Source of the DNA: Vulcanimicrobiota bacterium | GTDB lineage: Bacteria; Vulcanimicrobiota; Vulcanimicrobiia; Vulcanimicrobiales; Vulcanimicrobiaceae | Length of the DNA stretch: 18,918 bases | Assembly (NCBI GenBank): GCA_003133025.1 | Contig: PKZK01000036.1 | Location: forward strand, 1 to 18,918 | Direction: 5' to 3' | In this document: piece after piece, positions 1 to 17,791 of the stretch | Layout: every line of letters starts with the position of its first letter | Numbering within the stretch: the stretch's first letter is position 1 | Translations under genes and position numbers: made by a program | The notes under the pieces: model-generated | Told to the model about the DNA's origin: nothing | Database searches by the model: none | The model's input: only the letters and a program-made list of their open reading frames with translations

Positions 1-1008
1 GGTCCATATGCGGAGGGCGCCGTCGTCTCGCTGGCTTTCATCGACCCGCATGTCGGCCGGCTCGTCGCGCACCAACCCGCAGCCGCGCGCGAGGTTGCCG
101 CGGCCGGCCCGATCGTGCCCGATACGATCTCCGTGCAGTTGTTGAGCGCGGCGCCGCCCTACGAGTGCGGCGAGACGATCGCGCTCTCGTTCGTCGATCC
201 GGCAATTGCACGTATCCACCGCTGGTCGACGGGCGCGGTACGATCGTACGTTCCTGCTCCCGAAGGCGAAGAAATCGCTGCGCGCGAGAGCGTCGCGGTC
301 ATTCGCGACGACGCTCCCGTCCAGACTTCGCACGTTGCTGCCGCCGGCTTGCGCTTGGAATGGAGTGTGGCCCGCGTTGGCCGGCTCCTAGCGCTCAGCG
401 AGAAGTTGCTGTCCATCGACCGCCTGGGCTGGTACAGGCACACGCTTGCGATGCGTCTGCTCCTGCCGGACGAGGTCGTCCTTGCCGACGACAACGCACG
501 AGATGCCGCGGGTCGCCAACTCCGTGCTTTGAAGATCGCCGCTACCGAAGCCCTAGGTACGCCCCTGCTCGCCGCGTTGATGCCGAGTTTCACGCTCGAC
601 GAAGAGTGGTTGCGCTCGATCGAAACGCCCGCTCTCGCGCGCGCAGCGGCCACCCTCCGCGAAACGCTTCGGGAGCACGCGGGCGACGGCGATGCTGATG
701 TCCCGAGCGCCCCGAGCGAACGTCTCAGTACCGGCACCTTGCGCAGAGCGGACGTGGAACGAGCCGAACGGGGCGGCCTCGACGCTTTCCTCGCGGCCCT
801 CATTCCGTGTGAAGGCGCGACGCCGGAGATTGCGGGTACGCTGAGCGACTATAAGGCCGCGCTCGTCGAGTTGTTCGGTCAGACGGCGCAGGCCTCGGCG
901 ACCGTGCGCATCACCCGCTTAGCGACGCCGAATCCGGTCCTCGACGAGCGGTTGAGCGCAGTCGCGCGAGAGATCGATCGAGCCTTCGGCCGGCTTGCGG
1001 TCGCGTGA
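1..1008 (+). CDS. Hypothetical protein, 5' end outside the window; contains an internal repeated motif and a predicted helical C-terminal region
   Basis: Frame +1 is open from base 1 (GPYAEGAVVSLAFIDPHVGRL...) straight into the 115..1008 ORF, so GTG115 is probably not the true start. Stop TGA at 1006-1008. No family recognised. Confidence 0.7.
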   Translation, partial: GPYAEGAVVSLAFIDPHVGRLVAHQPAAAREVAAAGPIVPDTISVQLLSAAPPYECGETIALSFVDPAIARIHRWSTGAVRSYVPAPEGEEIAARESVAVIRDDAPVQTSHVAAAGLRLEWSVARVGRLLALSEKLLSIDRLGWYRHTLAMRLLLPDEVVLADDNARDAAGRQLRALKIAATEALGTPLLAALMPSFTLDEEWLRSIETPALARAAATLRETLREHAGDGDADVPSAPSERLSTGTLRRADVERAERGGLDAFLAALIPCEGATPEIAGTLSDYKAALVELFGQTAQASATVRITRLATPNPVLDERLSAVAREIDRAFGRLAVA

Positions 1009-1015
1009 ACGGGCG

Positions 1016-1669
1016 TTGCTGCAGCCGGTCCCTATCGCGCTCACGACGCTTGCCACCCTCGCGCTTTTCGCCGGAGCGGCCTTACCCCTCAGTAGCGCTC
1101 CAAACGCTCTCCGCGCGCGAAGCATCCTGCGCAGATGCGGGGCAATTATGAGCGAACTCAACGATCGCATCGTCCCGGTCACGCGCAAACGGCTGCGGGC
1201 TCGCCCAAGCGTGCCGACGTGGACCGAGATGCTCGCCAACTCGATCGACTCGGCTTCGCTCGAAGAACGCGCCGCAGCCGTACGTGCTTTGATTGCAGCG
1301 GGGCCACGTCCGGAAGACGGCGCACTCTTGGCACGCATAGCCCGCGAAGAGGAGGGCGACTTACGCCTCCTGGCCTTTCGCAGCCTGATCGCTCAACGCT
1401 ATCCCGAGGGCCGCGACATCTTCAGCGAAGCCGTGCGCTCCGGCAGCGATGCGGAGCGTTCCCTCGCCATCGACGGACTTGCCCGCTTGGGTGCGTTCGA
1501 GGCTCTAGCCGAAGCGTTCTCCGACCGGGTGGAACCTCTGGCGGCGAAGGCCGCCCTGCTCTACTCCGCCGCACACGACCGTCGCACGTTGCTCGAGGCG
1601 CTCGACGAACGCGTCGAACCAACGCGGCGCGACGCGATTCTGAAACTCCTCGTCGGCGTGCTCGAGTGA
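1016..1669 (+). CDS. HEAT-repeat-like protein with N-terminal hydrophobic anchor
   Basis: Hydrophobic segment PIALTTLATLALFAGAALPL followed by HEAT/PBS-like units (ERAAAVRALIAAG, LRLLAFRSLIAQ, ERSLAIDGLARLG). Start uncertain: TTG995, TTG1016 or ATG1148. Its stop overlaps the next gene's GTG (GTGA 1666-1669). Confidence 0.65.
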   Translation: MLQPVPIALTTLATLALFAGAALPLSSAPNALRARSILRRCGAIMSELNDRIVPVTRKRLRARPSVPTWTEMLANSIDSASLEERAAAVRALIAAGPRPEDGALLARIAREEEGDLRLLAFRSLIAQRYPEGRDIFSEAVRSGSDAERSLAIDGLARLGAFEALAEAFSDRVEPLAAKAALLYSAAHDRRTLLEALDERVEPTRRDAILKLLVGVLE

Positions 1670-2742
1670 CGAAGGCGCACGACGATAGCGTTCCGGAGTC
1701 GTTGGCGAACCTGATCGAGCGCGCCCGGAGCGCCCAAGCCACCGACGTCCACGTGGATGCGGCGCAAGGCGTCGCCTTTCGCGTCGCATCGTGTATCCGG
1801 CGCATCTCACGCGCCGCTCCCGCACATGAGGACATCCAGCGCTTCGTGGAGGTCGCGCTCGAACGGTTGCCGCGGGCACGCCTGGACAAACTCGGCATCG
1901 CCGACACCCTCTACGCCGACGACCGGGTCGGCGCGTTGCGCGTGCACGTTTCACGAGGTCTGCGAGGCTATCGGCTGGCCATACGACTCCTCGCACGGGC
2001 GGTTCCCGATTTGAGTACCCTGCGCTTGCCGGCGATCGTGGCCAGCTTCGGGGAGTACCGGTACGGCTTGATCTTGCTGTGCGGACCCAGCGGCTCCGGC
2101 AAGACGACCACCGCAGCGTCGCTGTTGCAACGCGCGAACGAGTCCAGCGCGCGCCACGTCGTTACCTTCGAGGCGCCGATCGAGCACGTCCTCACCTGGG
2201 GTACCTCGGTCGTCACGCAGTATGAAGTCGGGCGCGACGTAGCGACGTACGCGCACGGAATTCGAGGCGCGCTGCGCGCCGATCCGGATATCATCTTCAT
2301 CGGCGAACTCAGCGACGACGATGCCGCCGCCGCGTGCCTCCAAGCTGCCGAAAGCGGCCACCTCGTCCTCGGGGCACTCGACGCCCCGCCGGACGTGCCG
2401 CTGGCGTTGAATCGCTTCATCGGGCTGTTCCCCGTCGACGAACAGCAACGTGCGCGCAACCGGTTGTCGGACAATCTTCGCGCCGTCTTGGCACTCCGCT
2501 TGGTGCCGGCCAGCGACGGTTCGGGCTTGCGTGCCGCCGCCGAAATTCTCCTCAGTAACGATGCCGTACGCCGCATGGTGCGTGACGGTGCGCTGCACAC
2601 GCTCCGTTCCGTTCTTGCCGCTAATAAAAAGGCCGGAATGCAGACGCTCGAAATGAGCCTCGGCGACCTCGTCTCGGCGGGCGACGTCGACCTCGAGATC
2701 GCGCGTTCCATCGCGCTCTATCCCGAAGAGATACGTCCCTGA
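1666..2742 (+). CDS. PilT/PilU-family type IV pilus ATPase homologue, divergent (~358 aa)
   Basis: ATDVHV N-domain motif, Walker A GPSGSGKTT, TFEAPIE, ALRADPDIIFIGE Walker B, AAESGHLV, AVRRMVRD (AIRNLIRE equivalent) and GMQT. GTG1666 overlaps the upstream stop. The extension to 1135 in the ORF track is shadow of the HEAT gene. Confidence 0.9.
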   Translation: MTKAHDDSVPESLANLIERARSAQATDVHVDAAQGVAFRVASCIRRISRAAPAHEDIQRFVEVALERLPRARLDKLGIADTLYADDRVGALRVHVSRGLRGYRLAIRLLARAVPDLSTLRLPAIVASFGEYRYGLILLCGPSGSGKTTTAASLLQRANESSARHVVTFEAPIEHVLTWGTSVVTQYEVGRDVATYAHGIRGALRADPDIIFIGELSDDDAAAACLQAAESGHLVLGALDAPPDVPLALNRFIGLFPVDEQQRARNRLSDNLRAVLALRLVPASDGSGLRAAAEILLSNDAVRRMVRDGALHTLRSVLAANKKAGMQTLEMSLGDLVSAGDVDLEIARSIALYPEEIRP

Positions 2743-3770
2743 GGGGTACGAGCCGGCGACGCGAGGCGACGGCATTCCAACGCCGGCTGCTCGAACTCGA
2801 TCGCGAGCGTCTTGCGGCCTGGAGTTCCGTCGCCACGCTTTCCGGCTTGCACGAAGCGTTCGCCGCAATCTCGACCGCGCGCGATCCCGAGGCGATCGTC
2901 GCGCGCACGCTGACCGCCGCCATCGAGGTTCTCGGCTTCGAGCGGGCGGCGTATTTCACGCACGCCGCGAGCGACGACGCAGGCGCCGCAGGCTTGGTCC
3001 TGTTGGCGTACGTCGACGCCTTGGACGCGCCGCCGCCGACGCTCGACTGTTCGGCCCAACTCTGCACGAACGTCGAGCCGCTCAGCGGCGAGGAAGGCGA
3101 GCTTTCCGCGCCGCTCGTCGACGTGCGCAGACGCTACGTGCTCGCGCCGGTGATCTGCGCGAAGGGACGCCTGGGGATGCTGTATCTCGACGGTCCGCGG
3201 GCGGCCGCCCACCGCGACTCGACCCTGCGTCTCATCGAGGCCTTGTGCGCTATTTCCGCAGCGGCGCTCCAAAACGGACTCGCGTTACAACGCACGCGCT
3301 CGCTCGCGTCCAGAGATCCGTTGACGGGCTTGCTCAATCGGCGTGCCTTTCGCGAACGCTTCGAGAGAGAACTCGCGGCGGCGCAACGGGCGGGGCGTTG
3401 TTGCGCCTGCGTGATGCTCGATCTCGACGATCTCAAACGCATCAACGACTCCGGCGGGCACGCGGTGGGTGACGTCGTGCTCAAGCACCTCGCAACCACG
3501 CTCGCGGCGGCGGCGCGCCCGAGCGACATCGTCGCCCGCTTTGGCGGCGACGAGTTCGCGCTAGCCTTCATCGACGTCGAAGTCGCGCCGGCCCGGGCGC
3601 TCGTCCGTCGCCTCTCCGGATCGCTTGCAGCGGCCGGACTCCGTTGCTCCCTGGGAGCCGCGCTTTCGAGCCCGAGCAGCCTCGACGTGGATGCGCTGCT
3701 GCGAGAAGCCGATCGCGCCCTTTACGCCGTAAAAGCCGCCGGCAAGAACGGCTACGCCTTTGCCGATTGA
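2739..3770 (+). CDS. GAF-GGDEF diguanylate cyclase
   Basis: DPLTGLLNRR, DLDDLKRINDSGGHAVGD, RPSD I-site five residues before GGDEF, EADRALYAVK, and an N-terminal GAF-like region (LGFERAAYF...APVICAKGRLGMLYLD). First canonical start is TTG2847; CTG2739 is proposed (see findings). Confidence 0.9.
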   Translation: MRGTSRRREATAFQRRLLELDRERLAAWSSVATLSGLHEAFAAISTARDPEAIVARTLTAAIEVLGFERAAYFTHAASDDAGAAGLVLLAYVDALDAPPPTLDCSAQLCTNVEPLSGEEGELSAPLVDVRRRYVLAPVICAKGRLGMLYLDGPRAAAHRDSTLRLIEALCAISAAALQNGLALQRTRSLASRDPLTGLLNRRAFRERFERELAAAQRAGRCCACVMLDLDDLKRINDSGGHAVGDVVLKHLATTLAAAARPSDIVARFGGDEFALAFIDVEVAPARALVRRLSGSLAAAGLRCSLGAALSSPSSLDVDALLREADRALYAVKAAGKNGYAFAD

Positions 3771-3795
3771 AAGCACCCGCTAAAGAAATTCGTAC

Positions 3796-3818
3796 AGGCC
3801 GGGGCGTCGACCCGGCCT
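3796..3818. other. Perfect 8-bp inverted repeat / hairpin
   Basis: AGGCCGGG (3796-3803), 7-nt loop, CCCGGCCT (3811-3818), between the GGDEF and CDGSH genes. No U-tract follows. Confidence 0.5.
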
Positions 3819-3831
3819 AATGCCACGCAAC

Positions 3832-4053
3832 ATGTCAGACGTTACGATCAGCATTCGTCCCGGCGGCCCGTACTTGGTGCGTGGTCCCATCCAACTGCTC
3901 GATGCCGAGGGCAACGAGATCCCCGACGCGAGCGGCAAACAGAACATCGCGCTCTGCCGTTGCGGCGCGTCGACCAATAAGCCGTTCTGCGACGGCACGC
4001 ATTCGGCCATCGGCTTCCAAGCCGCCGAACGCGCGGTCGAAGAACAGGGCTAA
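3832..4053 (+). CDS. CDGSH iron-sulfur domain protein
   Basis: GPYLVRG and ALCRCGASTNKPFCDGTH match the CDGSH signature C-x-C-x2-S-x3-P-x-C-D-G-(S/T)-H. Start ATG3832, alternative ATG3820. Confidence 0.92.
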   Translation: MSDVTISIRPGGPYLVRGPIQLLDAEGNEIPDASGKQNIALCRCGASTNKPFCDGTHSAIGFQAAERAVEEQG

Positions 4054-5366
4054 TCCACCCACGGCGCGGGCGCAGGCAGCACCACGCCGCTCGCCTCGCC
4101 CAAGCCGATCGGCACGGCGCCGTCGCGCTCGCAGCGGCCGCGCAGGGTCACGAGGTCGCCGTCCTCGAGAAAGCCGCGCAGGCTGCCGTCGGCGAGTTCG
4201 AGCTTCTGCGTACCCCGCTGCGTGAGTTCGAGCAAACTGCCGTAGCTGCCGGGTTCGCTGCCCGAGATCGTGCCCGAGCCGTTGACGTCGCCGGCTTGCA
4301 CGCGCGAACCGTTGCTGCTCAGGTGCGCGAGCTGTTGCGCCATGGTCCAGTACATCGTGCGAAAATTGGTCTCGGCCACCACCGTCGGCGCGACACCCTC
4401 GCGCTGCATCACCTCCGAGGCCAGACCCACCTCGAGCGCGATGTCGAAGTGGTGATTGCCGCGCGGCGCGAGATAATCGAGCGGCGCGGGCTCTTGCACC
4501 GGCCCCGTCGAGCGAAACGGTTCGAGCGCTTCGAGCGGCGTGATCCAGGCCGCGAGCGACGTGCCGAACGATTTGCCCAAAAACGGCCCGAGTGGCTGGT
4601 ACTCCCACGACTGGATGTCGCGCGCGCTCCAATCGTTCATCAGCGCCACGCCGAAGATGTAGTCTTCCGCCTGCCACACCGGAAACGGCGTGCCCAACGG
4701 CGGCCCGTCGCCGGTGATAAAGGCCAACTCCAACTCGATATCCAGCAGACGGCATGGCCCGAACGAGGGCGCCGGCGCGTCGGGCGATTTGCGTTGGCCG
4801 TTGGGGCGCACGATCGGCGTGCCCGACACCACCACGCCGCTCGAGCGGCCGTGATAGCCGATCGGGATCCAGCGATAGTTCGGCAGTAGCGGATCGTCGG
4901 GCCGGAAAAATCGGCCCACGTTGAGCGCGTGGTTCAACGAAGAATAGAAGTCGACGTAATCGCGCACCTCGATCGGCAGCGTCATGCGCACGTCGGATCG
5001 TGCGACCAGCGCCCGCTGGGCGATGCCCTCGTCGCGCAGGCTCAGATCGCCCAGGCTGAGCAATCGTGAGAGCACCCCGCGCACGGCGCGCCACGTCGTC
5101 TTCGGCCGCTGCAGCAGCGCGTTGAGCGTAGGCTGCGCGAACACCCACGCGGCCTCGGGCAGCGCTTCGTCGAGCAGACCCGCGTGCGCGACCGCATGCA
5201 GGTCGAGCACCTTGTCGCCGATGGCCACGCCCAAGCGCGGCGTCGCTTCGCCGGCGCGCACGAAGGCGCCGTAGGGCAAATGCTGGATCGGAAAATCGCT
5301 GCCCGCGGCGCTGGGCACCCACGACTGCAAGCCCGGATCGGTCGTCGGGTCGAACGCGTCGCTCAC
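4050..5366 (-). CDS. fahA: Fumarylacetoacetase
   Basis: SDFPIQHLPYG, DFYSSLNHA, PIGYHGRSS, LDIELE, NDWSARDIQSWEYQPLGPFLGKSF, GSGTISG, FLEDGD motifs; 438 aa; clustered with hmgA and hppD. Confidence 0.96.
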   Translation of the reverse strand: MSDAFDPTTDPGLQSWVPSAAGSDFPIQHLPYGAFVRAGEATPRLGVAIGDKVLDLHAVAHAGLLDEALPEAAWVFAQPTLNALLQRPKTTWRAVRGVLSRLLSLGDLSLRDEGIAQRALVARSDVRMTLPIEVRDYVDFYSSLNHALNVGRFFRPDDPLLPNYRWIPIGYHGRSSGVVVSGTPIVRPNGQRKSPDAPAPSFGPCRLLDIELELAFITGDGPPLGTPFPVWQAEDYIFGVALMNDWSARDIQSWEYQPLGPFLGKSFGTSLAAWITPLEALEPFRSTGPVQEPAPLDYLAPRGNHHFDIALEVGLASEVMQREGVAPTVVAETNFRTMYWTMAQQLAHLSSNGSRVQAGDVNGSGTISGSEPGSYGSLLELTQRGTQKLELADGSLRGFLEDGDLVTLRGRCERDGAVPIGLGEASGVVLPAPAPWVD

Positions 5367-6307
5367 TGCGGCGCCGTGACCAAGATGCCGAGCGCCGTCA
5401 GATCCTCCACCGGCTCGTCGAAACTACAACTGCCGTAGGAGCGGAACGCGCGTATGCGCGCCGCGCCGATGTCGCCCGCGTGCGCGCTCACGCCGCACCA
5501 CGAGAACCGCTCGCTATCGAGCTTGAAGTGCGTCGGATCTTCGTCGGCGAGCAGCGTTTCGAGCGCACGCCGGTCCAACTCGTGAGCGCGCATCAGCACG
5601 GCCGCGCCGGCCACGTTGAGAAAGCCATGCTGCACGTAGCCCGCCTCCGCGTTGAAATGCCGAAACGGATGGTGCAAACCGGCCGTCGCCTTGAAGGGCA
5701 CGCCCAACCCGTGCGCGAGCGCCACGAAGTGGGCAAGGTTCGAGGGAGAAGGCACCGCGTCGGCGTTCGGGCCGCCGCAGCGCACTTTGGCGCACGCGTC
5801 GCGATCGCTCGCTTCGCGATAGCGGCTCAGTTCGAGCAACCACGATTCGAGCGCGATCGGGTCGGCCACGTCGAGTTCCACGTACAACTCCGGCTCGCCG
5901 GGCAAATCGGCGGCTTCGTAGGCCTCCGCGAGCGCGGCAATCGGCGCGCGTGCTTCGATCGTTTCCACGTCGATGCGGCTCGCATGCGCGCGCACGAGCT
6001 CGGCCACCGCCGGCAGGTCGCGCGCCGCGTCGCTGCCGAGCACGACGCTGAGCGGCAACGGTCCCGGCGCATCGTCGCGCTCCAGCGCCGCGATCAGTTC
6101 GTCGAGGCGCGCCGCTTGCACCACGAAGCGGCCGAGCATCCAAAAATGCGTGCCGCTCTCCGCGCGCTCGTGCGCGGCCAACGCGTCGTCGAGGCCCAGG
6201 CTCGCCGGCGGAAAGAGCGGCGCGTGGTCGATCAGTTCGCCCAAGAACGCGCGCGTCGCGGCACCCTCGGCGTGGGGCTGCGCGCCCCGGGCTCGTCTCC
6301 TGCTCAC
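5363..6307 (-). CDS. Conserved-looking uncharacterised enzyme-like protein coupled to fahA
   Basis: 314 aa with motif blocks LIDHAPLFPP, KVRCGG, PFKATAGLHHP, HGFLN, SYGSCSFDEP. TGA overlaps the fahA GTG (GTGA 5363-5366). Confidence 0.85.
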   Translation of the reverse strand: MSRRRARGAQPHAEGAATRAFLGELIDHAPLFPPASLGLDDALAAHERAESGTHFWMLGRFVVQAARLDELIAALERDDAPGPLPLSVVLGSDAARDLPAVAELVRAHASRIDVETIEARAPIAALAEAYEAADLPGEPELYVELDVADPIALESWLLELSRYREASDRDACAKVRCGGPNADAVPSPSNLAHFVALAHGLGVPFKATAGLHHPFRHFNAEAGYVQHGFLNVAGAAVLMRAHELDRRALETLLADEDPTHFKLDSERFSWCGVSAHAGDIGAARIRAFRSYGSCSFDEPVEDLTALGILVTAPQ

Positions 6308-6403
6308 CCCGCTACTCTGCCGGGGGGCGAGACGGGTTTCCTACGGACGCGGCGCCCCCGGAGACGGAGGTAGGCCAGGCGCGCGGGGCGCACTTGAAAG
6401 GCC

Positions 6404-7072
6404 ATCCCACAAGAACGCACGCCCCCGACGCCCGAGCTTTACGTCTCGCTGGATATCGAAGCCGATGGCCCCTGCCCCGGCATCTTTTCCATGCTCAGTT
6501 TCGGCATGGCCGCCTTCACCCTCGAGAAGGAACTGGTCGGCACGTTCAGCCGCAACCTCGAGACGCTGCCCGAGGCGCGCACCGACGCGCGCACGATGCA
6601 ATGGTGGGCGCTGCCCGAGAACGCGACGGCCTACGAGAAGTCGCGCGTCGACCAAATTCCGCCGCAGCAGGCGATGCGCGAGTGCAAGGCGTGGCTCGAG
6701 AGCATGCGCCGCTTCGGGCGTCCGGTGATTTGCGGCGCGCCCAGCGGCTTCGACTTCACCTTCATCTACTATTACTTCCAGCGCGAATTGGGCGAGAGCC
6801 CGGTCGGCTTCGCCAGCCTCGACCTGCGCAGCTACGCCGCCGCGGTGCTCAAGAAGCAGTACCGTCACGTGGGCAAGCGGCAGTATCCGTCGGATTGGAT
6901 CGACGAAGGCCTGCCGCACACGCACGTGGCCCTCGACGATGCGATCGAACAGGGCTCGATCCTGATCAACATGATCCGCGCCAACCTCGACATGCCGCAC
7001 ATCTTCGAACTCATCGACCTGCGCGAGGGCGCGCCGGAAGGCTCGGCCGCCCTGAGCCGGAGCGTCTCTTAA
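6404..7072 (+). CDS. DEDDh 3'-5' exonuclease/exoribonuclease-like protein
   Basis: ExoI YVSLDIEADGPCPG (DIE at 6452-6460) lies in frame upstream of ATG6491; ExoII GFDFTF; ExoIII HTHVALDDA. Start unresolved because of an in-frame TGA at 6395-6397; ATC6404 used here. Confidence 0.8.
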   Translation: MPQERTPPTPELYVSLDIEADGPCPGIFSMLSFGMAAFTLEKELVGTFSRNLETLPEARTDARTMQWWALPENATAYEKSRVDQIPPQQAMRECKAWLESMRRFGRPVICGAPSGFDFTFIYYYFQRELGESPVGFASLDLRSYAAAVLKKQYRHVGKRQYPSDWIDEGLPHTHVALDDAIEQGSILINMIRANLDMPHIFELIDLREGAPEGSAALSRSVS

Positions 7073-7091
7073 GAGCGGGGAAAGAAAAGCA

Positions 7092-8261
7092 ATGCCCTTT
7101 TACGTGCGGGCCGGCGCGGTGCCCGAAAAGCGCCACATCCAGTTTCGCCGCCCCGACGGCGGCCTCTACGCCGAGGAACTCTTCTCGACCAAGGGCTTCT
7201 CGAGCGTCTACTCGCTGCTCTACCACCTGCGCCCGCCGACTGCCGTGCTCGAAGTGCGGCCCTGGGTGCGCGACCCCATCGCCTACCTGCCCAACGATCC
7301 GCTGCGCAACCGCCATCTGCTGACCAGCCGTTCGTCCACGCCGGGCGATGCCGTCGAAGGCCGCGTGCCGCTCTTGGGCAACGCCGACCTCGCGCTCTCG
7401 ATCGCCGACGTCGACCGGCCCATGGACTATTTTTACCGTAACGCGGGCGGCGACGAGCTGCTCTTCGTGCACACGGGCAGCGGCACGCTCGAAACCGTCT
7501 TCGGCGACCTCGCGTATCGCGCGCACGACTATCTGCTCGTGCCCTGCGGCACGACCTATCGCGTGAAGCCTGCGGAGCCCACGCGCTTCGTCATGTACGA
7601 ATCGTCCGGCCAAGTCGAGATCCCCAAGCGCTTTCGCAACGCCTACGGACAACTCGAAGAGCACGCGCCCTATTACGAGCGGGACTTCCGCGCGCCGCTG
7701 CTGCGCGATCCGATCGACGCGCAAGGCGAATACGAAGTGCGCGTGACCAACGCCGGGCGCAACGCGACCCTCGTGATGCAGAACCATCCGTTCGACCTCG
7801 TCGGTTGGGACGGATTCTGTTACCCCTACGCGTTCAACGTGGCCGACTACGCGCCGATCACGGGCAAGTTGCACCAGCCGCCGCCCGTGCACGCCGTTTT
7901 CGAAGCACCCGGTGCGGCGTTTTGCGTGTTCGTGCCGCGGCTCTTCGATTATCATCCGCTCGCGATTCCGGTGCCGTACAACCACTCGAGCGTCGATTGC
8001 GACGAAGTGATCTACTACGTCAACGGTAACTTCATGAGCCGCCGCGGCGTGGAACAAGGCTCGGTCACCTTGCACGCGGCGGGCGCCACGCACGGGCCGC
8101 AGCCGGGCGCCGTCGAGGGCAGCTTGGGCAAGACGAGCACCGACGAAATCGCCATCATGGTCGACACCTTCGCGCCGCTCAACATCGCCGAACGGGCGCT
8201 GGCTTTCGAGCATCGCGACTACTACCGCTCCTGGCTCGAGCCCGTCGCGGCGGGACGGTGA
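7092..8261 (+). CDS. hmgA: Homogentisate 1,2-dioxygenase
   Basis: GFSSVYSLLYH, YRNAGGDELLFVH, PFDLVGWDG, HQPPPVH, iron-ligand region PYNHSSVDCDEVIYY and HGPQPG; 389 aa. Confidence 0.95.
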   Translation: MPFYVRAGAVPEKRHIQFRRPDGGLYAEELFSTKGFSSVYSLLYHLRPPTAVLEVRPWVRDPIAYLPNDPLRNRHLLTSRSSTPGDAVEGRVPLLGNADLALSIADVDRPMDYFYRNAGGDELLFVHTGSGTLETVFGDLAYRAHDYLLVPCGTTYRVKPAEPTRFVMYESSGQVEIPKRFRNAYGQLEEHAPYYERDFRAPLLRDPIDAQGEYEVRVTNAGRNATLVMQNHPFDLVGWDGFCYPYAFNVADYAPITGKLHQPPPVHAVFEAPGAAFCVFVPRLFDYHPLAIPVPYNHSSVDCDEVIYYVNGNFMSRRGVEQGSVTLHAAGATHGPQPGAVEGSLGKTSTDEIAIMVDTFAPLNIAERALAFEHRDYYRSWLEPVAAGR

Positions 8262-8986
8262 ACGCCGCGGCGCGCGCGCCGTGGTACTTTCGTTATCGCG
8301 TCTTCCTGATCGCGGGCGCTTACGCGGCCGGCTTCGTCATCGGCGACCTGCTCATGCCCGCGAGCGCGCCCACCTTCGTGCGCCTCGGCGCGCTGACGCC
8401 GGCGTGGTTCGGCGCGCAGGGCATGCTCCGGCTGATCGCATTGCTCACGCTCGCCGGCGCGCTCTGGCGGATTTGGGGCGCGGCCTATCTTTCCTCGGCC
8501 GTGGTGCACTCGTGGGACGTGCAAACGGGAACGCTCTACGTGGGCGGACCGTATCGCTTCACGCGTAATCCGCTCTACCTCGGCAACGTGTGTTGGGCGC
8601 TCGCGATCGGCGCGTACGGCACGCCGCTCGCTACGGCGCTGGTGGTACTCTTCAACCTCATCGTCGTCGAACTCTTGATCCGCACCGAGGAACGCGCGAT
8701 GCGCTCGCGCTTCGGCGCGCGCTATGTTGAGTACGAAGCGACGGTACCTCGCCTGTTTCCGCTCTGGTTCAAGGCCGGTCCGCCGGGGCCGGCGCTGCGA
8801 CCCGACTGGCGGCAGGGCCTGCGCTCGGAGCTGTTCGGCCTCGCCTTCGTGGGGCTCACCTTCGCCTATTGTCTGGGCTTCCATCAAGCGGCGGGGCTCT
8901 TCTGGGCCGCCGCGCTCTTGCTGATCGCGGTGGGTTTCGTGCGCGGCCGGACCAAGGGTCTGCCCTCCGGCCCGCCAATCTCTTAA
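8258..8986 (+). CDS. Isoprenylcysteine carboxyl methyltransferase (ICMT/PEMT)-family membrane protein
   Basis: LYVGGPYRFTRNPLYLG, EERAMRSRFGARYVEYEATVPRLFP and several hydrophobic helices; GTGA overlap with hmgA. Confidence 0.88.
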   Translation: MNAAARAPWYFRYRVFLIAGAYAAGFVIGDLLMPASAPTFVRLGALTPAWFGAQGMLRLIALLTLAGALWRIWGAAYLSSAVVHSWDVQTGTLYVGGPYRFTRNPLYLGNVCWALAIGAYGTPLATALVVLFNLIVVELLIRTEERAMRSRFGARYVEYEATVPRLFPLWFKAGPPGPALRPDWRQGLRSELFGLAFVGLTFAYCLGFHQAAGLFWAAALLLIAVGFVRGRTKGLPSGPPIS

Positions 8987-9026
8987 CGGTTCTCTTCTTC
9001 CGCTACTTCCGCATCATGGAGCGACG

Positions 9027-10142
9027 TTGGCTACCGAAACGACGGAGCGCGCCTCCGCGCTCGACCTCCTCGACTGGGACCATCTCCACTTCTTCGTGGG
9101 CAACGCCAAGCAGGCGGCACATTACTACGCGACGGCCTTCGGCTTCCGCATCACGGCCTACGCAGGCCCCGAAACCGGCGTGCCCGAGCGCGCCTCGTAT
9201 CTGCTCGAACAGAACGATCTGCGCTTCGTCGTGACCAGCGCCCTGCGCCCGGACGATCCGGCCGCGGCCCACGTCGCCCTCCACGGCGACGGCATCAACG
9301 ACATCGCGTTGCGCGTGCCCGACGCCGCCGCCGCTCACGCGGAAGCGGTTGCGGCCGGGGCGCGGTCGGTCTCCGCGCCGCAACGCCTCTCGGATGCGGA
9401 CGGCTCGGTCGTGGTCGCGACCATCGCCACGTACGGCGATACGGTGCATACGTTCGTCGAGCGCGATGGGTACGCGGGCACGTTTCTGCCCGGCTTCGTG
9501 AAGGTCGCGACGAGCCAAGCTGCGCCGCACGCGCCCGGCCTGCGCGCGATCGATCACTGCGTGGGCAACGTCGGCTGGAACGAGATGGACGCCTGGGCCG
9601 ACTTCTACGGCAAAGCCTTCGGCTTCAGCCAATTGGTGTCGTTCGACGATACCGACATCTCGACCGAGTACACGGCGCTGCGCTCGAAGGTGATGTCCGA
9701 CGCGCGGCGCCGCGTGAAGTTTCCGATCAACGAGCCCGCCGAAGGCCTCAAGAAGTCGCAGATCGAGGAATACCTCGACGCCTATCGCGGCGCAGGCGTG
9801 CAGCACGTCGCGATCGCGACCGACGACATCGTTGCGGCGGTGCGCGCCCTGCGCGCCAACGGCGTGCAGTTCCTCGACACGCCGGGCTCCTATTACGACG
9901 CCCTCGAAGCGCGCGTAGGCCACATCGACGAAGAGATCGAGGTGCTGCGCGAGCTGAGCATCCTGGTCGACCGCGACGACTTGGGCTACATGCTCCAGAT
10001 CTTCACCAAGCCGCTGCAAGACCGGCCGACGCTCTTCTTCGAAATCATCCAGCGCCGCGGCAGCCTCTCGTTCGGCAAAGGCAACTTCAAGGCGCTGTTC
10101 GTGTCGATCGAAGAGGAACAAGGCCGTCGCGGCAACCTGTGA
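9027..10142 (+). CDS. hppD: 4-hydroxyphenylpyruvate dioxygenase
   Basis: DHLHFFVGNAKQAAHYY, IDHCVGNV, KSQIEEYL, GVQHVA, LQIFTKP, FFEIIQR, FGKGNFKALF. TTG start with GGAG at 9018-9021. Confidence 0.96.
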   Translation: MATETTERASALDLLDWDHLHFFVGNAKQAAHYYATAFGFRITAYAGPETGVPERASYLLEQNDLRFVVTSALRPDDPAAAHVALHGDGINDIALRVPDAAAAHAEAVAAGARSVSAPQRLSDADGSVVVATIATYGDTVHTFVERDGYAGTFLPGFVKVATSQAAPHAPGLRAIDHCVGNVGWNEMDAWADFYGKAFGFSQLVSFDDTDISTEYTALRSKVMSDARRRVKFPINEPAEGLKKSQIEEYLDAYRGAGVQHVAIATDDIVAAVRALRANGVQFLDTPGSYYDALEARVGHIDEEIEVLRELSILVDRDDLGYMLQIFTKPLQDRPTLFFEIIQRRGSLSFGKGNFKALFVSIEEEQGRRGNL

Positions 10143-10153
10143 CGCCGGTCATC

Positions 10154-10162
10154 TGATACCTT
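10154..10162 (+). promoter_or_regulatory. Putative extended -10 promoter element
   Basis: TGATACCTT fits TGnTAnnnT in a locally AT-rich patch; predicted start site about 10169-10170. Confidence 0.4.
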
Positions 10163-10169
10163 AATTCCT

Positions 10170-10218
10170 GCAAAGCGGGCCCGGTGTGAGCGTCCTCGCA
10201 TCGTGGCCCGTTTTGCTA
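10170..10218 (+). terminator. Long RNA hairpin; probable intrinsic terminator, attenuator or small RNA
   Basis: GCAAAGCGGGCC-CGGTGTGAG / loop CGTC / CTCGCATCG-T-GGCCCGTTTTGC gives 21 bp with one bulge and three G-U pairs; TTTT at 10211-10214. Confidence 0.65.
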
Positions 10219-10253
10219 GCAGACGCGCGGCGCGCGCCAAAGCGTCGCGCATC

Positions 10254-10679
10254 ATGCTACAGGCGTTCGCTTTTGCAATCGCCCTCTATGCGGGCACGGA
10301 TCGCTCCGCCGACGCTCGCGCCATGTGGCGCGACCTCAATGCCGTACGCGTCTCGGCGGGCTTGACGCCGCTCGCCTTCGAGCCCCGCTTGTGCGAGATC
10401 GCACGGGCGCACGCGCACGACATGGTGGCGCGGCATTACTTCGATCACCAGTCACCCGACGGCGTGGGGCCGTTCGACCGAATGGCGCGCGCGGGCTGGC
10501 ATTTCGGCTATGCCGGCGAGAATCTCGCGATGGACACCGACGAACGAGGCGCCGAGGCGCACCTCCTGTCCTCGCCCGAGCACCGTCAAAACATGCTCGA
10601 GCCGCATTACGCGCACGTCGGGATCGCGGCGGTCGAGACCGACTCGCGCGAGTATTTCGTCGAAGTCTTTAGCGACTGA
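10254..10679 (+). CDS. CAP (SCP-like) domain protein, probably exported
   Basis: LNAVRVSAGLTPL, ARAHAHDM, YFDHQSPDG, AGENLA, SPEHRQNML, HVGIA. Hydrophobic N-terminus from ATG10254 (alternative GTG10203). Confidence 0.9.
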   Translation: MLQAFAFAIALYAGTDRSADARAMWRDLNAVRVSAGLTPLAFEPRLCEIARAHAHDMVARHYFDHQSPDGVGPFDRMARAGWHFGYAGENLAMDTDERGAEAHLLSSPEHRQNMLEPHYAHVGIAAVETDSREYFVEVFSD

Positions 10680-11526
10680 CCGCGTCGACGGCGAGCACGC
10701 CGACATCCTCGGCACCGTGACCCCGTTCGATCAGTGCGTCGATGCGGGCAGCGATCGTGGGCAACACGTGCAGCGTGCCGCCGCCTTCGGCGATCGTCTC
10801 TTCGATCAAGCGCGCATCCTTCCGGGCCATCGTCAACTCGAAGGCCGGTGAGAAGTCGCCGTGCGCCATCTTCTTGCCGCGTACGTTGAGCACCGCGGTC
10901 AGTTGGAAGTGCTCGAAGAGTTCGTGCGCCTCCGGCGCCTTTATGCCCACGCTCTCCGCGAGCGAATAACTATCGGCCAGCGCGGCCGTCACCGACACGA
11001 TCAGGTTGTTGCCCACGAGCTTGAGCGTGGCCGCTTTGTTGGGACGGTCGCCCACGTACCACAAATCGCCGGTCATCGGCTGTAGCGCGGGCTCGACCTC
11101 GTCGAATACGGCTTGCGAACCGGCGACGAGCATGATGCCGTGGCCGTCGCGGCAACCCTGCGGCGACATGAACACCGGCGCGTGCAGAAACTTCAGGCCC
11201 CGCGCGGCGGCGCGGGCGAAGCGCGCGGCCGTCGGAAACGGCGCGACCGTCGTGTGATCGATGACCACCGTCTCCGGCGCGATCGCGCCGTCGAGTTGCT
11301 CCAGCAACGCATCGACGGCTTTATCGTCGGAGAGGATGATGTGGGCGCGCTCGGCGCCCTGCGCGGCTTCGCGCGGATCGCGCACGGCCCGCGCGCCGAA
11401 TCGCTCGAGGGCCTGGGCTTTTTCGAAGCTCCGGTTCCAGACGACGACCTCGTCGCCTCTGCGCCGCAGCGCCTCCACGAAACCGCTGCCCATCATGCCC
11501 GCGCCGTACCATGCTATTTTCGCCAC
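10669..11526 (-). CDS. NAD(P)-dependent beta-hydroxyacid dehydrogenase (3-hydroxyisobutyrate dehydrogenase family)
   Basis: Rossmann motif IAWYGAGMMGSG, VWNRS, catalytic Lys region AATLKLVGN, FSPAFELTMARKD. Confidence 0.9.
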   Translation of the reverse strand: MAKIAWYGAGMMGSGFVEALRRRGDEVVVWNRSFEKAQALERFGARAVRDPREAAQGAERAHIILSDDKAVDALLEQLDGAIAPETVVIDHTTVAPFPTAARFARAAARGLKFLHAPVFMSPQGCRDGHGIMLVAGSQAVFDEVEPALQPMTGDLWYVGDRPNKAATLKLVGNNLIVSVTAALADSYSLAESVGIKAPEAHELFEHFQLTAVLNVRGKKMAHGDFSPAFELTMARKDARLIEETIAEGGGTLHVLPTIAARIDALIERGHGAEDVGVLAVDAVSR

Positions 11527-11990
11527 GGGTCGGTCAACACGATGGGCGTGCGGCGCGGTTGCGGGATGCCCGTGACCGTCGGGCGCGGCGTGGGCACGGG
11601 CGTCGGCGTGAAGGTGGCAAGCGGCCCCGGCGGCGGCGAGTAACCCGCAAACGGCGTCAGCGTCGCCACCGGAGCGGGCGGCGGGCTCTGAATGGAAAGC
11701 GTATGCGAGGCGGCGTCGTATCGTACGAGGTCGCCCAGTCCGCGCGCGGCCGCGCCGAGCGGCACGAACGCGTCGTCACCCGGAGGTAGGCCCATCGTAA
11801 CGCTTCTGCCCTCGCGCTCGAAGGTGATCGACCCGGCCGACGGGTCGACCGTGATGCGCTGGGCCAGGGCGAAGCCGAAGGGCGCGAGGGGCGCCAACAC
11901 GGTCCCGTCCACGAGCCGGGCCGGCACGGCCGCGTACACGGGACGCCCGTCGACGACGACCGTAACCGGCGGCGCGCTCACGGGTAGCAA
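11514..11990 (-). CDS. Copper amine oxidase N-terminal (stalk)-like domain protein with Pro/Thr-rich tail
   Basis: VTVVVDGRPV...PARLVDGTVLAPL...AFVPLGAAARGLGDLVRYDAASHTLSI, then a PTPVPTPRPT tail. Start TTG11990 or GTG11981. The longer ORF to 12683 is antisense to yihY. Confidence 0.7.
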   Translation of the reverse strand: MLPVSAPPVTVVVDGRPVYAAVPARLVDGTVLAPLAPFGFALAQRITVDPSAGSITFEREGRSVTMGLPPGDDAFVPLGAAARGLGDLVRYDAASHTLSIQSPPPAPVATLTPFAGYSPPPGPLATFTPTPVPTPRPTVTGIPQPRRTPIVLTDPWRK

Positions 11991-11996
11991 CGGCGC

Positions 11997-12824
11997 GTGT
12001 CCAAGCTGATCGCGATCTTCCGCACCGCGGGCAAGCGGTTCTCGGAAGACGGCTGTGCGTTCATGGCCCAGGCGATCGCCTTCAACGCGATGTTCGCCGT
12101 CTTTCCGCTGTTGATGCTGGCCTTCGCGGCATTCGGGTTCATCTACGGCGGTGCCCAAGGCGAGCAGCGCATCCAGGATCTGGTCAAGCATCTGGCGCCC
12201 GCGGTGCAGCCGTTGATCTTCGAGAACGCCCAGCACATCGTCGCCTTCCGCAGCATCTCGGGCGTGACGGCCGTCGTCGGGCTCATCTGGTCGGGTAAGA
12301 ACCTCTTCCAGACCCTGGCGTTCTCGCTCGACCGGGCGCTCGGCGTGACCCAGGGCCGGTCGCTGGTCTTCGACATCCTCGTCGCCTTGGTTGCCCTGCC
12401 GGTTTTCGGCGTGATCTTGCTGGGCGCGACGGCCGTGCCGGTCGGGATTTCGTACGTGGTGACGCTGGGCGGCTTCGCGCACGCCGCTTTCCTCACGCAG
12501 GCGGCGGGATACGCGGCGGGCATTCTGCTCGTTTTCGTCGTAACGATGCTCCTCTACGCGTATCTTCCCAATCGCCGCGTCTCGCCGTGGTTCGGCGTGC
12601 CGGGGGCGATCGTCACGACGATCGCTTGGGAAGTTTCGCAGATCGCGTTTGCGATCTACTCCACGCACGTGGATTTCCGCCACGTGTACGGCGCGCTCGC
12701 AACGGTCGCCGTCCTCCTGCTTTGGTTCTACTACATGGCATTCATCTTCTTGTTCGGCGCGGAGGTCAGCGCCCAGACCCTGGCTTACGACAGCGCGGCA
12801 AAGCCCGTCAGGCGGTCGGCGTGA
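11997..12824 (+). CDS. YihY/virulence factor BrkB family membrane protein
   Basis: AQAIAFNAMFAVFPLL, LYAYLPN, GAIVTTIAWE, VYGALATVAVLLLWFYYMAFIFLFGAEV; about six hydrophobic helices. Confidence 0.92.
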   Translation: MSKLIAIFRTAGKRFSEDGCAFMAQAIAFNAMFAVFPLLMLAFAAFGFIYGGAQGEQRIQDLVKHLAPAVQPLIFENAQHIVAFRSISGVTAVVGLIWSGKNLFQTLAFSLDRALGVTQGRSLVFDILVALVALPVFGVILLGATAVPVGISYVVTLGGFAHAAFLTQAAGYAAGILLVFVVTMLLYAYLPNRRVSPWFGVPGAIVTTIAWEVSQIAFAIYSTHVDFRHVYGALATVAVLLLWFYYMAFIFLFGAEVSAQTLAYDSAAKPVRRSA

Positions 12825-13825
12825 GGCGTTCCCTCAACGCGCGGCGGCTGCTCGGCGTGCTGGCGCTGGCGTTCTTCGGGTTCGTGCCCTTCATGGGCGC
12901 GTACACCTCGGCGCCGCCGGTCGTGATCGTCTATCCGCTGACGGTGGGCTCGGGCGCAAACCCGGAATCGGGCAGCAACATCGCCGTCCTGATCGCGCAA
13001 GGGCTCGCCCAGCACGGCGTAACGGTCAAGCCCGCGCCGCCCGGCACGCAGCGCGCCGACTATCTCACCGTCGCGCAAGCCGCCGGCGCCGACTACTACG
13101 TCACCGGCTTCCTGACCGCGCTCGGCGATGAGGTGTCGATGGTGTTGCAGGCGGTCAGCACCAGCAGCGGCAGCATCATCAACAGCACCACGACCGTCGT
13201 GAAAACGTACGCCGAGGCCGCCGGTCAGGCGCCGTCGCTAGCCGATGCGATCCTGCGCCATTCCGGCCGCGCGCTCGCCCAACTCGACGAACCCAAAGCC
13301 GTCGACAGCGCCACGCCGCAACCGAGTCGCAGCGACAAAGGCAACGAGGCCAACCTCAACGGCTTGGGCGGCATCTTCCACCACAAGCCCAAGGCAGCGC
13401 CCTCACCCGGGCCGGGTACGCTGGCGCTCGCGGAGCGGCGCGTGCTGATCTCGCAAGTCGGCGGCGACGCCGGCTCGGAACTTGCGCAACGCGCTTCGCG
13501 CGCGGTGACCGCGGCAGCAGGCCATGGCGGCGTCGCAACGCAGGCGTTGCCCGTGTCGGCGGCCGAGGTCGAGGCGCACGGCGCGGATTTCTGCAAGAAC
13601 AACGCGGGCACGCAGATGCTCTACGCCACCACGGTCACGCTGCAAAAGAATGCCGCGGGCCAGCCGACCGGCGTCGGCGTCGACGTGGTCACCTTCGATT
13701 GTGCGGGTAACGCCGTCGCGCGGCATCACGGCGAAGCGCCGGCCTCGGGCCGCGGCGGCCTCGATGCGGCGCTCGATCGCGCGGTAGCCGCGGCCCTCGC
13801 CGCCGCGGCGCCGAAGCCGGGCTAA
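12821..13825 (+). CDS. Exported hypothetical protein, possible CsgG/TolB-N-like domain
   Basis: GTG12821 overlaps the yihY TGA. Basic plus hydrophobic signal (RRSLNARRLLGVLALAFFGFVPF) and pattern VVIVYPL...AQAAGADYYVTGFL...VSTSSGSII. Confidence 0.7.
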   Translation: MRRSLNARRLLGVLALAFFGFVPFMGAYTSAPPVVIVYPLTVGSGANPESGSNIAVLIAQGLAQHGVTVKPAPPGTQRADYLTVAQAAGADYYVTGFLTALGDEVSMVLQAVSTSSGSIINSTTTVVKTYAEAAGQAPSLADAILRHSGRALAQLDEPKAVDSATPQPSRSDKGNEANLNGLGGIFHHKPKAAPSPGPGTLALAERRVLISQVGGDAGSELAQRASRAVTAAAGHGGVATQALPVSAAEVEAHGADFCKNNAGTQMLYATTVTLQKNAAGQPTGVGVDVVTFDCAGNAVARHHGEAPASGRGGLDAALDRAVAAALAAAAPKPG

Positions 13826-13838
13826 CGCCGGCGCGCCG

Positions 13839-14264
13839 TTATTTCAGCGAGCGCAGATAGGCGACGATCGCCGTCGCGTCGGCCTGGTTGAAGCGATAAC
13901 CCGGCATCGGCGCCTTCGCTTTGCTCCCATCCGGCAGGGCGCCGGTTCGCAGGAACGTCAGCGCATCGGCGTCGGTCGCGAACATCTTCAGGCCGCGCAG
14001 CGAGGGCACGGTGTCGGCCCACGGCACGCCGGGCCTGGGTTTGACTTTATTGGGGCCACCCTGCAACTGCGCGTTATGGCAATCGGCGCACTGGCCCGCG
14101 TCACCGGTGAGATACTCGCCGCGTGCGAGCAGATCGGCCGGCGCGGCGGTCTGCGCCAGCGCCCGGCTCGCCGAATGCCCTACCGCCAGGGCGACGAGGA
14201 AACCCGCCGCCACGGTCGACAGCAGCATTTGGGCACCGCGCTTCGTCGCGAACGGATTTTTCAT
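13839..14264 (-). CDS. Monoheme c-type cytochrome, exported
   Basis: Signal peptide ending ALA-QT, ARGEYL, heme motif CADCH, likely Met ligand in APMPGY, AIVAYLRSLK. Confidence 0.92.
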   Translation of the reverse strand: MKNPFATKRGAQMLLSTVAAGFLVALAVGHSASRALAQTAAPADLLARGEYLTGDAGQCADCHNAQLQGGPNKVKPRPGVPWADTVPSLRGLKMFATDADALTFLRTGALPDGSKAKAPMPGYRFNQADATAIVAYLRSLK

Positions 14265-14285
14265 GCGCCGCGTATACGACGGCAG

Positions 14286-14792
14286 CTAGAGCAGGCCTTC
14301 GGGCAAATCTCCGACCGCAATCGTGCGCGCTTCGAGGTCGATGGCGCCGATGAAGGCTTTGACCATCGGCACGAGTGCGCGCTGCGGCCCGACGACCAAA
14401 CAGTCTTGGGCCGGAAAGTGTTCGATGCCGACCACTTCGCCCAGCAGCTTTCCCGAGGCGTCGATCAAGCGTAGCCCGATCAGGTCGGCGTCGAGATACT
14501 CGCCCGGCTCGAGATGCACGGCGGCGCGCTCGGCGTAGAGTTCGCAGCCGACGAACGGCTGCGCGGCCTCGACCGTGTGCACGCCTGCGAGCGCGATCAC
14601 GTAGCGCGACTTGTGGCGCCGGATCGATTCGAGCGAGACCCGCTGTGCGCTGGGCCGCGCACTCAGAGCGTATTCCGAACCCGCATGTAACGCGCTCTCG
14701 CCTGCCGACGTCGGGTCGCACTTCAACTCGCCGCGCACGCCGAAGATGCCCGTCAAGCGGGCAATGGGCACGAGCGCTGCGGCATCGCTCAC
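14286..14792 (-). CDS. rimM: 16S rRNA processing protein RimM
   Basis: IARLTGIFGVRGELK, EPGEYLDADLIGL, LGEVVGI, LVPMVKAFIGAIDLE. GTG14792 overlaps the lspA TGA; 168 aa; position in the rpsP operon. Confidence 0.93.
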   Translation of the reverse strand: MSDAAALVPIARLTGIFGVRGELKCDPTSAGESALHAGSEYALSARPSAQRVSLESIRRHKSRYVIALAGVHTVEAAQPFVGCELYAERAAVHLEPGEYLDADLIGLRLIDASGKLLGEVVGIEHFPAQDCLVVGPQRALVPMVKAFIGAIDLEARTIAVGDLPEGLL

Positions 14793-15250
14793 GCGGCGGC
14801 GGTTTCCCGAGCGGGCGGCGTGCGCAGCGAGGCGATCGCCATCAAGACCAGTCCCACCGTGATGCACGCGTCGGCACCGTTGAAGATGTAGAACCAGCGG
14901 GGCGCGATGAAGTCGATCACGTAGTGGTGCAGCACGCGATCGATCACGTTACCGAACGCGCCCCCAAGCACCAAGCCGAAGCCGATCTGCGCGAGCGGCG
15001 ATTCGCGGATGAGATCGCGCAGCATCAGCGTCAAGCCGGCCACCACCACGAAGGCGAGTACGATCAGCAGCCACGAGCGGTCGCCGAAGAGACCCATCGC
15101 TCCGTGGGTATTTTGCGCGTAGGTAAAGTCGAGCACGCCGGGCACGATCGTCCGGCGTTGGCCGGGTACGAACGATGCCGCGATCGCGCGTTTGGTCAGG
15201 AGATCGAAAATGCCCGCGAACGCGAGTGCGAGGGCGATCCGATTGAACGT
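14789..15250 (-). CDS. lspA: Lipoprotein signal peptidase II
   Basis: DLLTK (first helix), NTHGAMG, GGAFGNVIDR, VIDFI, IFNGADACI. The first transmembrane helix lies upstream of GTG15145; ACG15250 is proposed as start. Confidence 0.92.
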   Translation of the reverse strand, partial: TFNRIALALAFAGIFDLLTKRAIAASFVPGQRRTIVPGVLDFTYAQNTHGAMGLFGDRSWLLIVLAFVVVAGLTLMLRDLIRESPLAQIGFGLVLGGAFGNVIDRVLHHYVIDFIAPRWFYIFNGADACITVGLVLMAIASLRTPPARETAAA

Positions 15251-15253
15251 AGG

Positions 15254-15817: not shown

Positions 15818-15820
15818 GGC

Positions 15821-16111
15821 TTAACCCTTCTTCGCTTTGGGCTCGCGCTTCGTCGTCGGCACGAAGCCGCGCTCGACGAGACCCTTCTCCGCCAGGAGAC
15901 GCCGCACCGGATCCGAGGGCTGTGCGCCCTTGGCGAGCCATTCCTTGATCTTCTCGTCGTTGACGACGACGGTCTTCGGCTCGGTGCGAGGGTTGTAATG
16001 ACCCACGATTTCGATGAAGCGGCCGTCGCGCGGCGAGCGCGCGTCGGTCACGACGAAACGGTACGTGGGTTGTTTCTTGGCGCCCATGCGCCGGAGACGG
16101 ATCTTAACCAT
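15821..16111 (-). CDS. rpsP: 30S ribosomal protein S16
   Basis: [41 protein letters not shown]...[14 protein letters not shown] upstream of ATG. Confidence 0.98.
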
Positions 16112-16153
16112 GGAATTCCTACGTCACTTTCGGGTGGTAAATCGGCTCGCCCG

Positions 16154-17476: not shown

Positions 17477-17507
17477 CGCAGGCCGGAGCTACGCCCCATG
17501 GCGCAAC

Positions 17508-17759: not shown

Positions 17760-17791
17760 GGTCTCCTGTCCTAGGGGCGCCGAGCGCCGAT

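Follow-up and report, generated by a model that had tools for sequence, protein, structure and literature searches.

A strong candidate for an enzyme that replaces the maleylacetoacetate isomerase MaiA without being its homologue, encoded beside fumarylacetoacetase in diverse bacteria

How can a bacterium finish the homogentisate route of tyrosine and phenylalanine breakdown if it has the enzymes before and after maleylacetoacetate and no recognizable isomerase between them? In many non-proteobacterial bacteria the third enzyme of this route is unassigned. The question is raised by a contig of a Vulcanimicrobiota bacterium (GenBank assembly GCA_003133025.1, contig PKZK01000036.1), whose positions 1 to 18,918 on the forward strand are called the window here. 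It carries hppD, hmgA and fahA together with an open reading frame (ORF) of no assigned function, which we call gene X and which an earlier sequence-only reading of this DNA had proposed as the missing isomerase. The analysis described below makes X a strong candidate for an enzyme that replaces MaiA and is not homologous to it. We consider it fairly probable that X is a thiol-cofactor-independent cis-trans isomerase of maleylacetoacetate, predicted to work between HmgA and FahA in the place of MaiA.

Gene X encodes 314 amino acids from a GTG start on the minus strand (6307..5363). Its TGA stop shares four nucleotides with the GTG start of fahA (GTGA at 5366-5363), which bears out the earlier statement that the two genes are directly coupled, and all five motifs then quoted (LIDHAPLFPP, KVRCGG, FKATAGLHHP, HGFLN and GSCSFDEP) are present in its product. 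With G+C contents of 0.74/0.50/0.85 at codon positions 1/2/3, a pattern typical of a coding frame, X is confirmed as a real ORF. The pathway enzymes around it are identified by profile scores: FahA reaches 521.8 bits against TIGR01266 (cut-off 375.3) and HppD 450.7 bits against TIGR01263 (cut-off 277), while HmgA is of a short type that lies above the cut-off of Pfam HgmA_N and below that of TIGR01015 (E 4.5e-17). The hmgA and hppD genes are on the strand opposite to X, beyond an exonuclease-like gene. As that reading had also noted, nothing GST-like or DinB-like accompanies them: none of the 16 main ORFs of the window that were scanned matched GST or DinB/MDMPI families, and the genome itself, which is 80% complete, gave no match to TIGR01262 (maiA) or PF11716 (MDMPI_N), both of which were matched in control genomes.

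To which family does X belong? Neither Pfam, NCBIfam nor the PDB sequences contain a match (for Pfam and NCBIfam, no family at E<=0.1), and a further sequence search returned just two chance matches with E~4. Nevertheless, X has plenty of relatives: of 7,996 candidates that were scored, 5,178 are homologous to it, and a profile search collected 5,941 family representatives of 50% clusters. Where these proteins have any name it is 'hypothetical protein', and the closest named relatives of X come from Vulcanimicrobiota/Eremiobacterota. The corresponding clusters in the Atlas are unnamed apart from one automatically called 'Transaldolase family' without Pfam support, a label that we did not adopt. 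The family is not described in the literature searched, which included passages of PMC10950700, PMC3203155, PMC6498646 and PMC11012174, with most subscription papers and all supplements outside its scope, and the term 'maleyl' is absent from the accessible part of the GapMind carbon paper (PMC9007349). X represents a real, unannotated and widespread enzyme family, and its novelty would lie in a new fold for a known reaction.

Is the family tied to the pathway on chromosomes? The synteny sample took the 80 best among the 584 loci confirmed in GTDB and spans Vulcanimicrobiota, Actinomycetota, Chloroflexota, Acidobacteriota, Planctomycetota, Rhodothermota, Gemmatimonadota, Cyanobacteriota, Eisenbacteria and Calditrichia. 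At 68 of these loci, fahA lies directly downstream of X on the same strand at a distance of at most 407 nt, and within 8 kb of X there is an hmgA in 37 and an hppD in 43; three of the 12 loci without fahA end less than 900 nt from X. This linkage of the family to hmgA and fahA speaks in favour of the proposed function. Longer homologues of X point to the same neighbour, with FahA domains in four of eight; by eye, two of these four have plausible in-frame linkers, one looks like a read-through and one is frameshifted. The three fusion-like records that were looked up are singletons. Two single records have other partners: P0127, which occurs on three contigs, joins X to acetoacetyl-CoA synthetase, and P0128, possibly a read-through, joins it to an FAD monooxygenase.

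X also travels on plasmids. It was found on 23 plasmid records (11 from Streptomyces, six from Priestia, two each from Pseudonocardia and Rhodococcus, and one each from Kovacikia and Nonomuraea), and all seven of the regions that were opened have fahA next to X. Four show the order hmgA-X-fahA, one of them, from Pseudonocardia, being flanked by transposases, and this order mirrors hmgA-fahA-maiA of Paracoccus; another one is arranged as hppD-X-fahA-hisC-hmgA. Three of the seven clusters contain CoA-transferase A/B genes. Such neighbours bear on the idea that X works on a step after FahA, such as the decarboxylation of acetoacetate through a Schiff base. An enzyme that decarboxylates acetoacetate by lysine-imine chemistry is known, and the fusion in P0127 would fit such a role, yet the CoA-transferases would themselves use acetoacetate, X is placed between hmgA and fahA, and the exclusion between X and maiA described below would be left unexplained. 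We regard this idea as very improbable.

Genome profiles were drawn from samples, in which kindred genomes are not independent of each other, so that Fisher p-values calculated from them overstate the significance. Among 201 Actinomycetota genomes, X occurs in 10, hmgA in 67 and long-type fahA in 17, and all 10 genomes with X carry hmgA and an adjacent long fahA; these tallies include, for hmgA, the unpublished genomes G051, G098, G138 and G170 and, for fahA, G170, none of which carries X. In the sample of its own class (121 genomes), all 76 genomes with X are among the 83 with long fahA, and 38 genomes have neither. The Acidobacteriota sample (201 genomes) has X in 34, long fahA in 38 and both in 32. 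Over these three samples, 118 of 120 X genomes also have long fahA. The Cyanobacteria sample is uninformative, with long fahA in one of 201 genomes, namely the centre genome.

If X takes the place of MaiA, do the two avoid each other? None of 50 X-bearing genomes, representing 50 of the 80 loci, has a maiA over the cut-off, and weaker GST-like matches occur in eight, the best reaching 86 of 171 bits. For Proteobacteria, the plasmid collection stands in for a whole-genome sample. Long fahA is found there on 249 records, and the proteobacterial genera listed account for at least 188 of these. Three different X queries hit 23, 24 and 23 records, and Proteobacteria are absent from all of them. With a maiA query, 224 records were hit; the ten genera most frequent among them are proteobacterial, and 45 other genera exist besides those listed. 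In three of four proteobacterial regions opened, maiA lies within 4 kb of fahA, the remaining one being from Ralstonia. Among the 201 Acidobacteriota, the single maiA-positive genome has its maiA near hmgA, and carries neither X nor long fahA. This anti-correlation, too, is in favour of the isomerase proposal, with the exclusion running mostly by phylum. In a quick tree of FahA (60 rows, from an unfinished careful search, midpoint-rooted), four proteobacterial FahAs nest among X-linked ones, a topology that would allow replacement of X by maiA without showing it.

What kind of protein may carry out this step? An AlphaFold2 model built on a 119-row alignment (pLDDT 94.7, pTM 0.92) shows alternating strands and helices of a (beta/alpha)8 barrel, with a TIM-barrel match over residues 14-311. 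The earlier idea of a different fold is thereby upheld, as the prediction is a TIM barrel instead of a GST fold. Aldolases are the best Foldseek matches (E about 5e-4 to 1e-3). A wide fold search over 48,161 representatives placed five DERAs at the top (Z 14.1-13.0, rmsd 3.0-4.0, 199-224 residues aligned; the best, 2a4a, with Z 14.1 and rmsd 3.6 over 210 residues) and unrelated TIM barrels below them at Z <=12.5. In a second listing, the top 44 rows are DERAs or DERA scaffolds (Z 12.4-14.4, KE70 being DERA-derived), and the next family follows at 11.7. GST, DinB and racemase folds are absent from these lists, which alone does not rule them out. A fold shared with DERA is no demonstration of function, and it is to be noted that the own genome carries a separate deoC.

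Conservation of residues was counted over 355 non-redundant sequences of 366 aligned. Besides the lysines, histidines and cysteine counted in Table 1, D27 (350), E118 (353), E144 (352), R176 (355), T208 (355), N231 (352) and R284 (351) are near-invariant. C294 is the sole near-invariant cysteine, its four exceptions being one gap, two long fusion-like records and one degenerate copy. Of the residues in the motifs quoted earlier, K174, R176, K206, H212 and C294 held up (351-355 of 355), whereas the Cys of KVRCGG (C177) is found in 281 and replaced by Thr in 59, and the His of HGFLN (H227) is found in 336. According to the secondary-structure list, D27, E118, E144, K174/R176, K206 and C294 are on or just after strands 1, 4, 5, 6, 7 and 8, respectively, and active sites of TIM barrels form at strand ends. 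A profile-profile alignment of X with 24 DERA sequences, two of them from the unpublished genomes G575 and G597, places D27 on D16, and K174 and K206 on the catalytic lysines K167 and K201 of DERA, although this alignment is non-significant (E 0.051). By our own reading, outside the aligner's output, SYGSCSF of X may correspond to RFGASSL of DERA.

An aldolase-like pair of lysines would also suit cleavage of a C-C bond. X might split maleylacetoacetate into maleate and acetoacetate by a retro-Claisen reaction via a lysine imine, bypassing isomerization, and direct maleylpyruvate hydrolases are indeed known from gentisate pathways. FahA would then be redundant, yet nearly all X genomes carry the long fahA as counted above, and no maleate-using gene is annotated in the seven plasmid regions opened; such a hydrolase seems to us quite unlikely.

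Returning to isomerization, how could a barrel of this type achieve it? The sequence-only reading had offered the Cys of GSCS or a His-bound metal. The cysteine is near-invariant, and because two lysines probably occupy catalytic positions of class I aldolases, imine chemistry is favoured over the metal. K174, helped by K206, E118 and E144, would react with the ketone at C4 of maleylacetoacetate, beside the cis double bond, to give an imine. The imine would activate the alkene so that C294 could add reversibly to C2, the C2-C3 bond would rotate, and elimination and hydrolysis would release fumarylacetoacetate to FahA. In DERA, according to the accessible text of PMC12937707, Michael addition of an enal (crotonaldehyde) links K167 of the active site to C47. 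Given isomerase activity, we put the chances of this combination of lysine imine and cysteine addition at about even. Alternatives with the same function are that the lysines and R176 just bind or polarize the substrate, or that E118, E144 and H212 bind a metal.

In the proposed mechanism, C294 would do the job that glutathione does in MaiA, and no small-molecule thiol would be needed. Thiol genes were looked for in five X genomes: gshB is over the cut-off only in the cyanobacterium G020, mshC is found only in the actinomycete G133 and bshC only in the Rhodothermia genome G014, while in G000 and the 99%-complete G451 none of the three passes. Since the family spans carriers of glutathione, mycothiol and bacillithiol as well as carriers free of these genes, dependence on one specific thiol is unlikely. 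The varied thiol chemistry fits a nucleophile borne by the enzyme; X may otherwise use any thiol promiscuously.

How does X compare with known isomerases? It shares with MaiA (HmgC, GSTZ1; a zeta-class GST, TIGR01262) the slot in the pathway, the clustering with hmgA and fahA, the proposed reaction and the logic of reversible thiol addition. Zeta GSTs isomerize maleylacetoacetate when glutathione is present, as stated in the accessible passages of PMC10950700. Unlike MaiA, X has no match to TIGR01262 or GST Pfam families, is predicted to be a barrel rather than a thioredoxin-like plus all-helical GST fold, and occurs in genomes without gshB. MDMPI of the DinB superfamily (PF11716), named as mycothiol-dependent maleylpyruvate isomerase of the gentisate pathway in available passages of PMC6498646, resembles what is proposed for X, being a cis-trans isomerase outside the GST family that acts on a maleyl-keto acid in bacteria without glutathione. 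X differs from it by the lack of a PF11716 match, by its predicted fold and by carriers beyond the mycothiol producers. Maleate cis-trans isomerase, of the Asp/Glu racemase fold, works without cofactor through a covalent cysteine adduct and has two cysteines, whereas X, modelled as a barrel, has one near-invariant cysteine, C177 being the next best kept. Fungal HmgX was considered as well; according to the accessible part of PMC3203155 it is an HppD accessory with a 771-bp transcript, and the clusters that encode it contain maiA too. As for DERA/DeoC, the class I aldolase that is the best structural match, with Asp of strand 1 and Lys of strands 6 and 7 in register in the non-significant alignment, X has only 10-21% identity to it, no match to TIGR00126 or DeoC Pfam, about 70 residues more than DERA in the stretch from strand 7 to strand 8, and an invariant HH, R176 and strand-8 Cys of its own. 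X shares the fold of DERA and probably its lysines, and is not a DERA by sequence.

What can be said against X as the isomerase? Several observations weigh against this assignment. Long fahA occurs without X in 20 genomes in all (7 of 17 Actinomycetota, 7 of 83 in the own class and 6 of 38 Acidobacteriota), and five genomes of 94-99% completeness (G453, G463, G467, G533 and G565) have hmgA and long fahA with neither maiA nor MDMPI_N. In G453 and G463, the exonuclease-hmgA-hppD cluster is kept and X is cleanly gone before fahA, leaving its slot empty; in Nocardia farcinica, hmgA adjoins fahA and X is missing. A broader profile found no divergent X in five whole genomes of X-less long-fahA actinobacteria, in a search that had no positive control, and none was seen beside fahA in 11 regions of X-less genomes. 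X is thus dispensable, and the step can run without it via another unrecognized enzyme or thiols alone. At the locus L086, with the order hmgA-X-fahA, K174, H212 and C294 have been lost. On two plasmids of Streptomyces, the neighbourhood of X-fahA lacks hmgA and includes an MDMPI-N gene at a distance of about 4 kb. The exclusion between maiA and X is mostly one between phyla, with a within-phylum test of n=1 and plasmids only for Proteobacteria. By sequence, X cannot be linked to DERA with significance (hhalign probability 0.1 and 1.05, E 0.051), with no profile signal against E. coli DERA alone; C294 is left unplaced by the DERA profile alignment, and its closeness to K174 is inferred from the strand ends of the model.

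The linkage of X is, moreover, tighter to fahA than to hmgA (68 against 37 of 80 loci), which is also compatible with a role as an accessory of FahA. X may bind FahA and channel the substrate or, as damage control, remove thiol or amine adducts of maleyl- and fumarylacetoacetate, both reactive compounds, by retro-Michael reaction, with isomerization left to cell thiols. The X-FahA fusions, the repeated loss of X without replacement (about seven changes on the quick FahA tree) and a non-enzymatic glutathione bypass, which a study in MAAI-deficient mice reportedly describes, to judge from its title in a reference list, would agree with this. That X keeps a complete array of invariant polar residues where its strands end points to catalysis, not scaffolding, and the proteobacterial FahAs nested among X-linked ones have maiA instead of X beside them, as in a gene-for-gene swap; we rate an accessory role as unlikely. 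With those seven or so changes, the quick tree gave no support to a single clade of X-less FahAs of altered specificity. The FahAs of G453 and G463 (L154, L155) have a long branch of 0.91 and score about 411 bits, compared with 520 for that of the window; FahA of this genus may have changed its specificity, and some X-linked FahAs are long-branched too.

Table 1. Features of the window around gene X and its candidate catalytic residues (counts are out of 355 sequences)
Feature	Position	Strand	Basis or conservation
Gene X, predicted (beta/alpha)8 barrel, candidate maleylacetoacetate isomerase	5363..6307	-	ORF, homologues, model
C294, just after strand 8 (GSCS), proposed nucleophile	5426..5428	-	351/355
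H212-H213, loop after strand 7, proposed acid/base or substrate binding	5669..5674	-	354, 346 of 355
K206, strand 7 (FKATAGLHH), at the presumed DERA K201 position, proposed auxiliary lysine	5690..5692	-	354/355
K174, strand 6, at the presumed DERA K167 Schiff-base position, proposed imine former	5786..5788	-	353/355
Span with E118 (5956-5954, strand 4) and E144 (5878-5876, strand 5), invariant acids at strand ends	5876..5956	-	
fahA, long-type fumarylacetoacetase, start overlaps stop of X	4050..5366	-	TIGR01266 over cut-off
hmgA, homogentisate 1,2-dioxygenase (short type), makes the proposed substrate	7092..8261	+	HgmA_N over cut-off
hppD, 4-hydroxyphenylpyruvate dioxygenase	9027..10142	+	TIGR01263 over cut-off
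Rv2179c-like 3'-5' exoribonuclease (PF16473), divergent from X, within the tyrosine cluster	6491-7072	+	Pfam
ICMT/PEMT-family membrane methyltransferase, between hmgA and hppD, overlapping the hmgA stop	8258-8986	+	Pfam
Ordinary neighbours: PilT-like ATPase, GAF-GGDEF, CAP-domain, NAD-dependent hydroxyacid dehydrogenase, BrkB/YihY-family membrane protein, cytochrome c	1135-3770, 10203-14264		Pfam

Other genes of these neighbourhoods raise questions of their own. The PF16473 exoribonuclease holds the same place in four of the 80 loci and, even though X has been lost there, in G453, G463, G467 and G533; the methyltransferase between hmgA and hppD was found in none of the 80 related loci. The remaining part of the window (14286-18886) presumably encodes, by its translations, rimM, lspA, a KH protein, rpsP, ffh, acpP and fabG. 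Several kb upstream of X, 18 of the 80 loci have a conserved EgtB-like gene (e.g., L076:313-1581), which from its sequence we take to be a relative of the ergothioneine-synthesis EgtB. The X copy at L086:1477-2412 is a decaying or repurposed member of the family. On linear plasmids of Streptomyces, L145 and L148 show the X-fahA pair without hmgA, and four sampled genomes have long hmgA and long fahA without X. Many X-negative, hmgA-positive actinobacteria have the order hppD-hmgA-short FAH-family gene, and such a short gene lies beside hmgA (1.5-kb flank) at eight of 23 hmgA loci examined in X-less Actinomycetota (L101-L123), which forms a second gap in the handling of maleylacetoacetate.

What would it mean if X is the isomerase? 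The assignment would give a name to about 5,900 50%-identity clusters for which there is no Pfam model, and fill a gap in the homogentisate route of at least 10 phyla. As a wider picture, X might stand for a third, structurally unrelated class of maleyl-keto-acid isomerases, an iminium-using class I aldolase barrel in which a lysine would activate the enone and a cysteine of the protein would stand in for glutathione or mycothiol, and which was the ancestral partner of long FahA and was displaced by zeta-class GST in Proteobacteria, a tentative scheme that we would sooner doubt than accept as a whole. If the Lys-Cys mechanism is true, X would be a natural enzyme with the iminium/Michael chemistry that engineers, judging by PDB titles, have built into DERA, and would also provide glutathione-free hosts with a part, independent of cofactors, for pathways of aromatic degradation.

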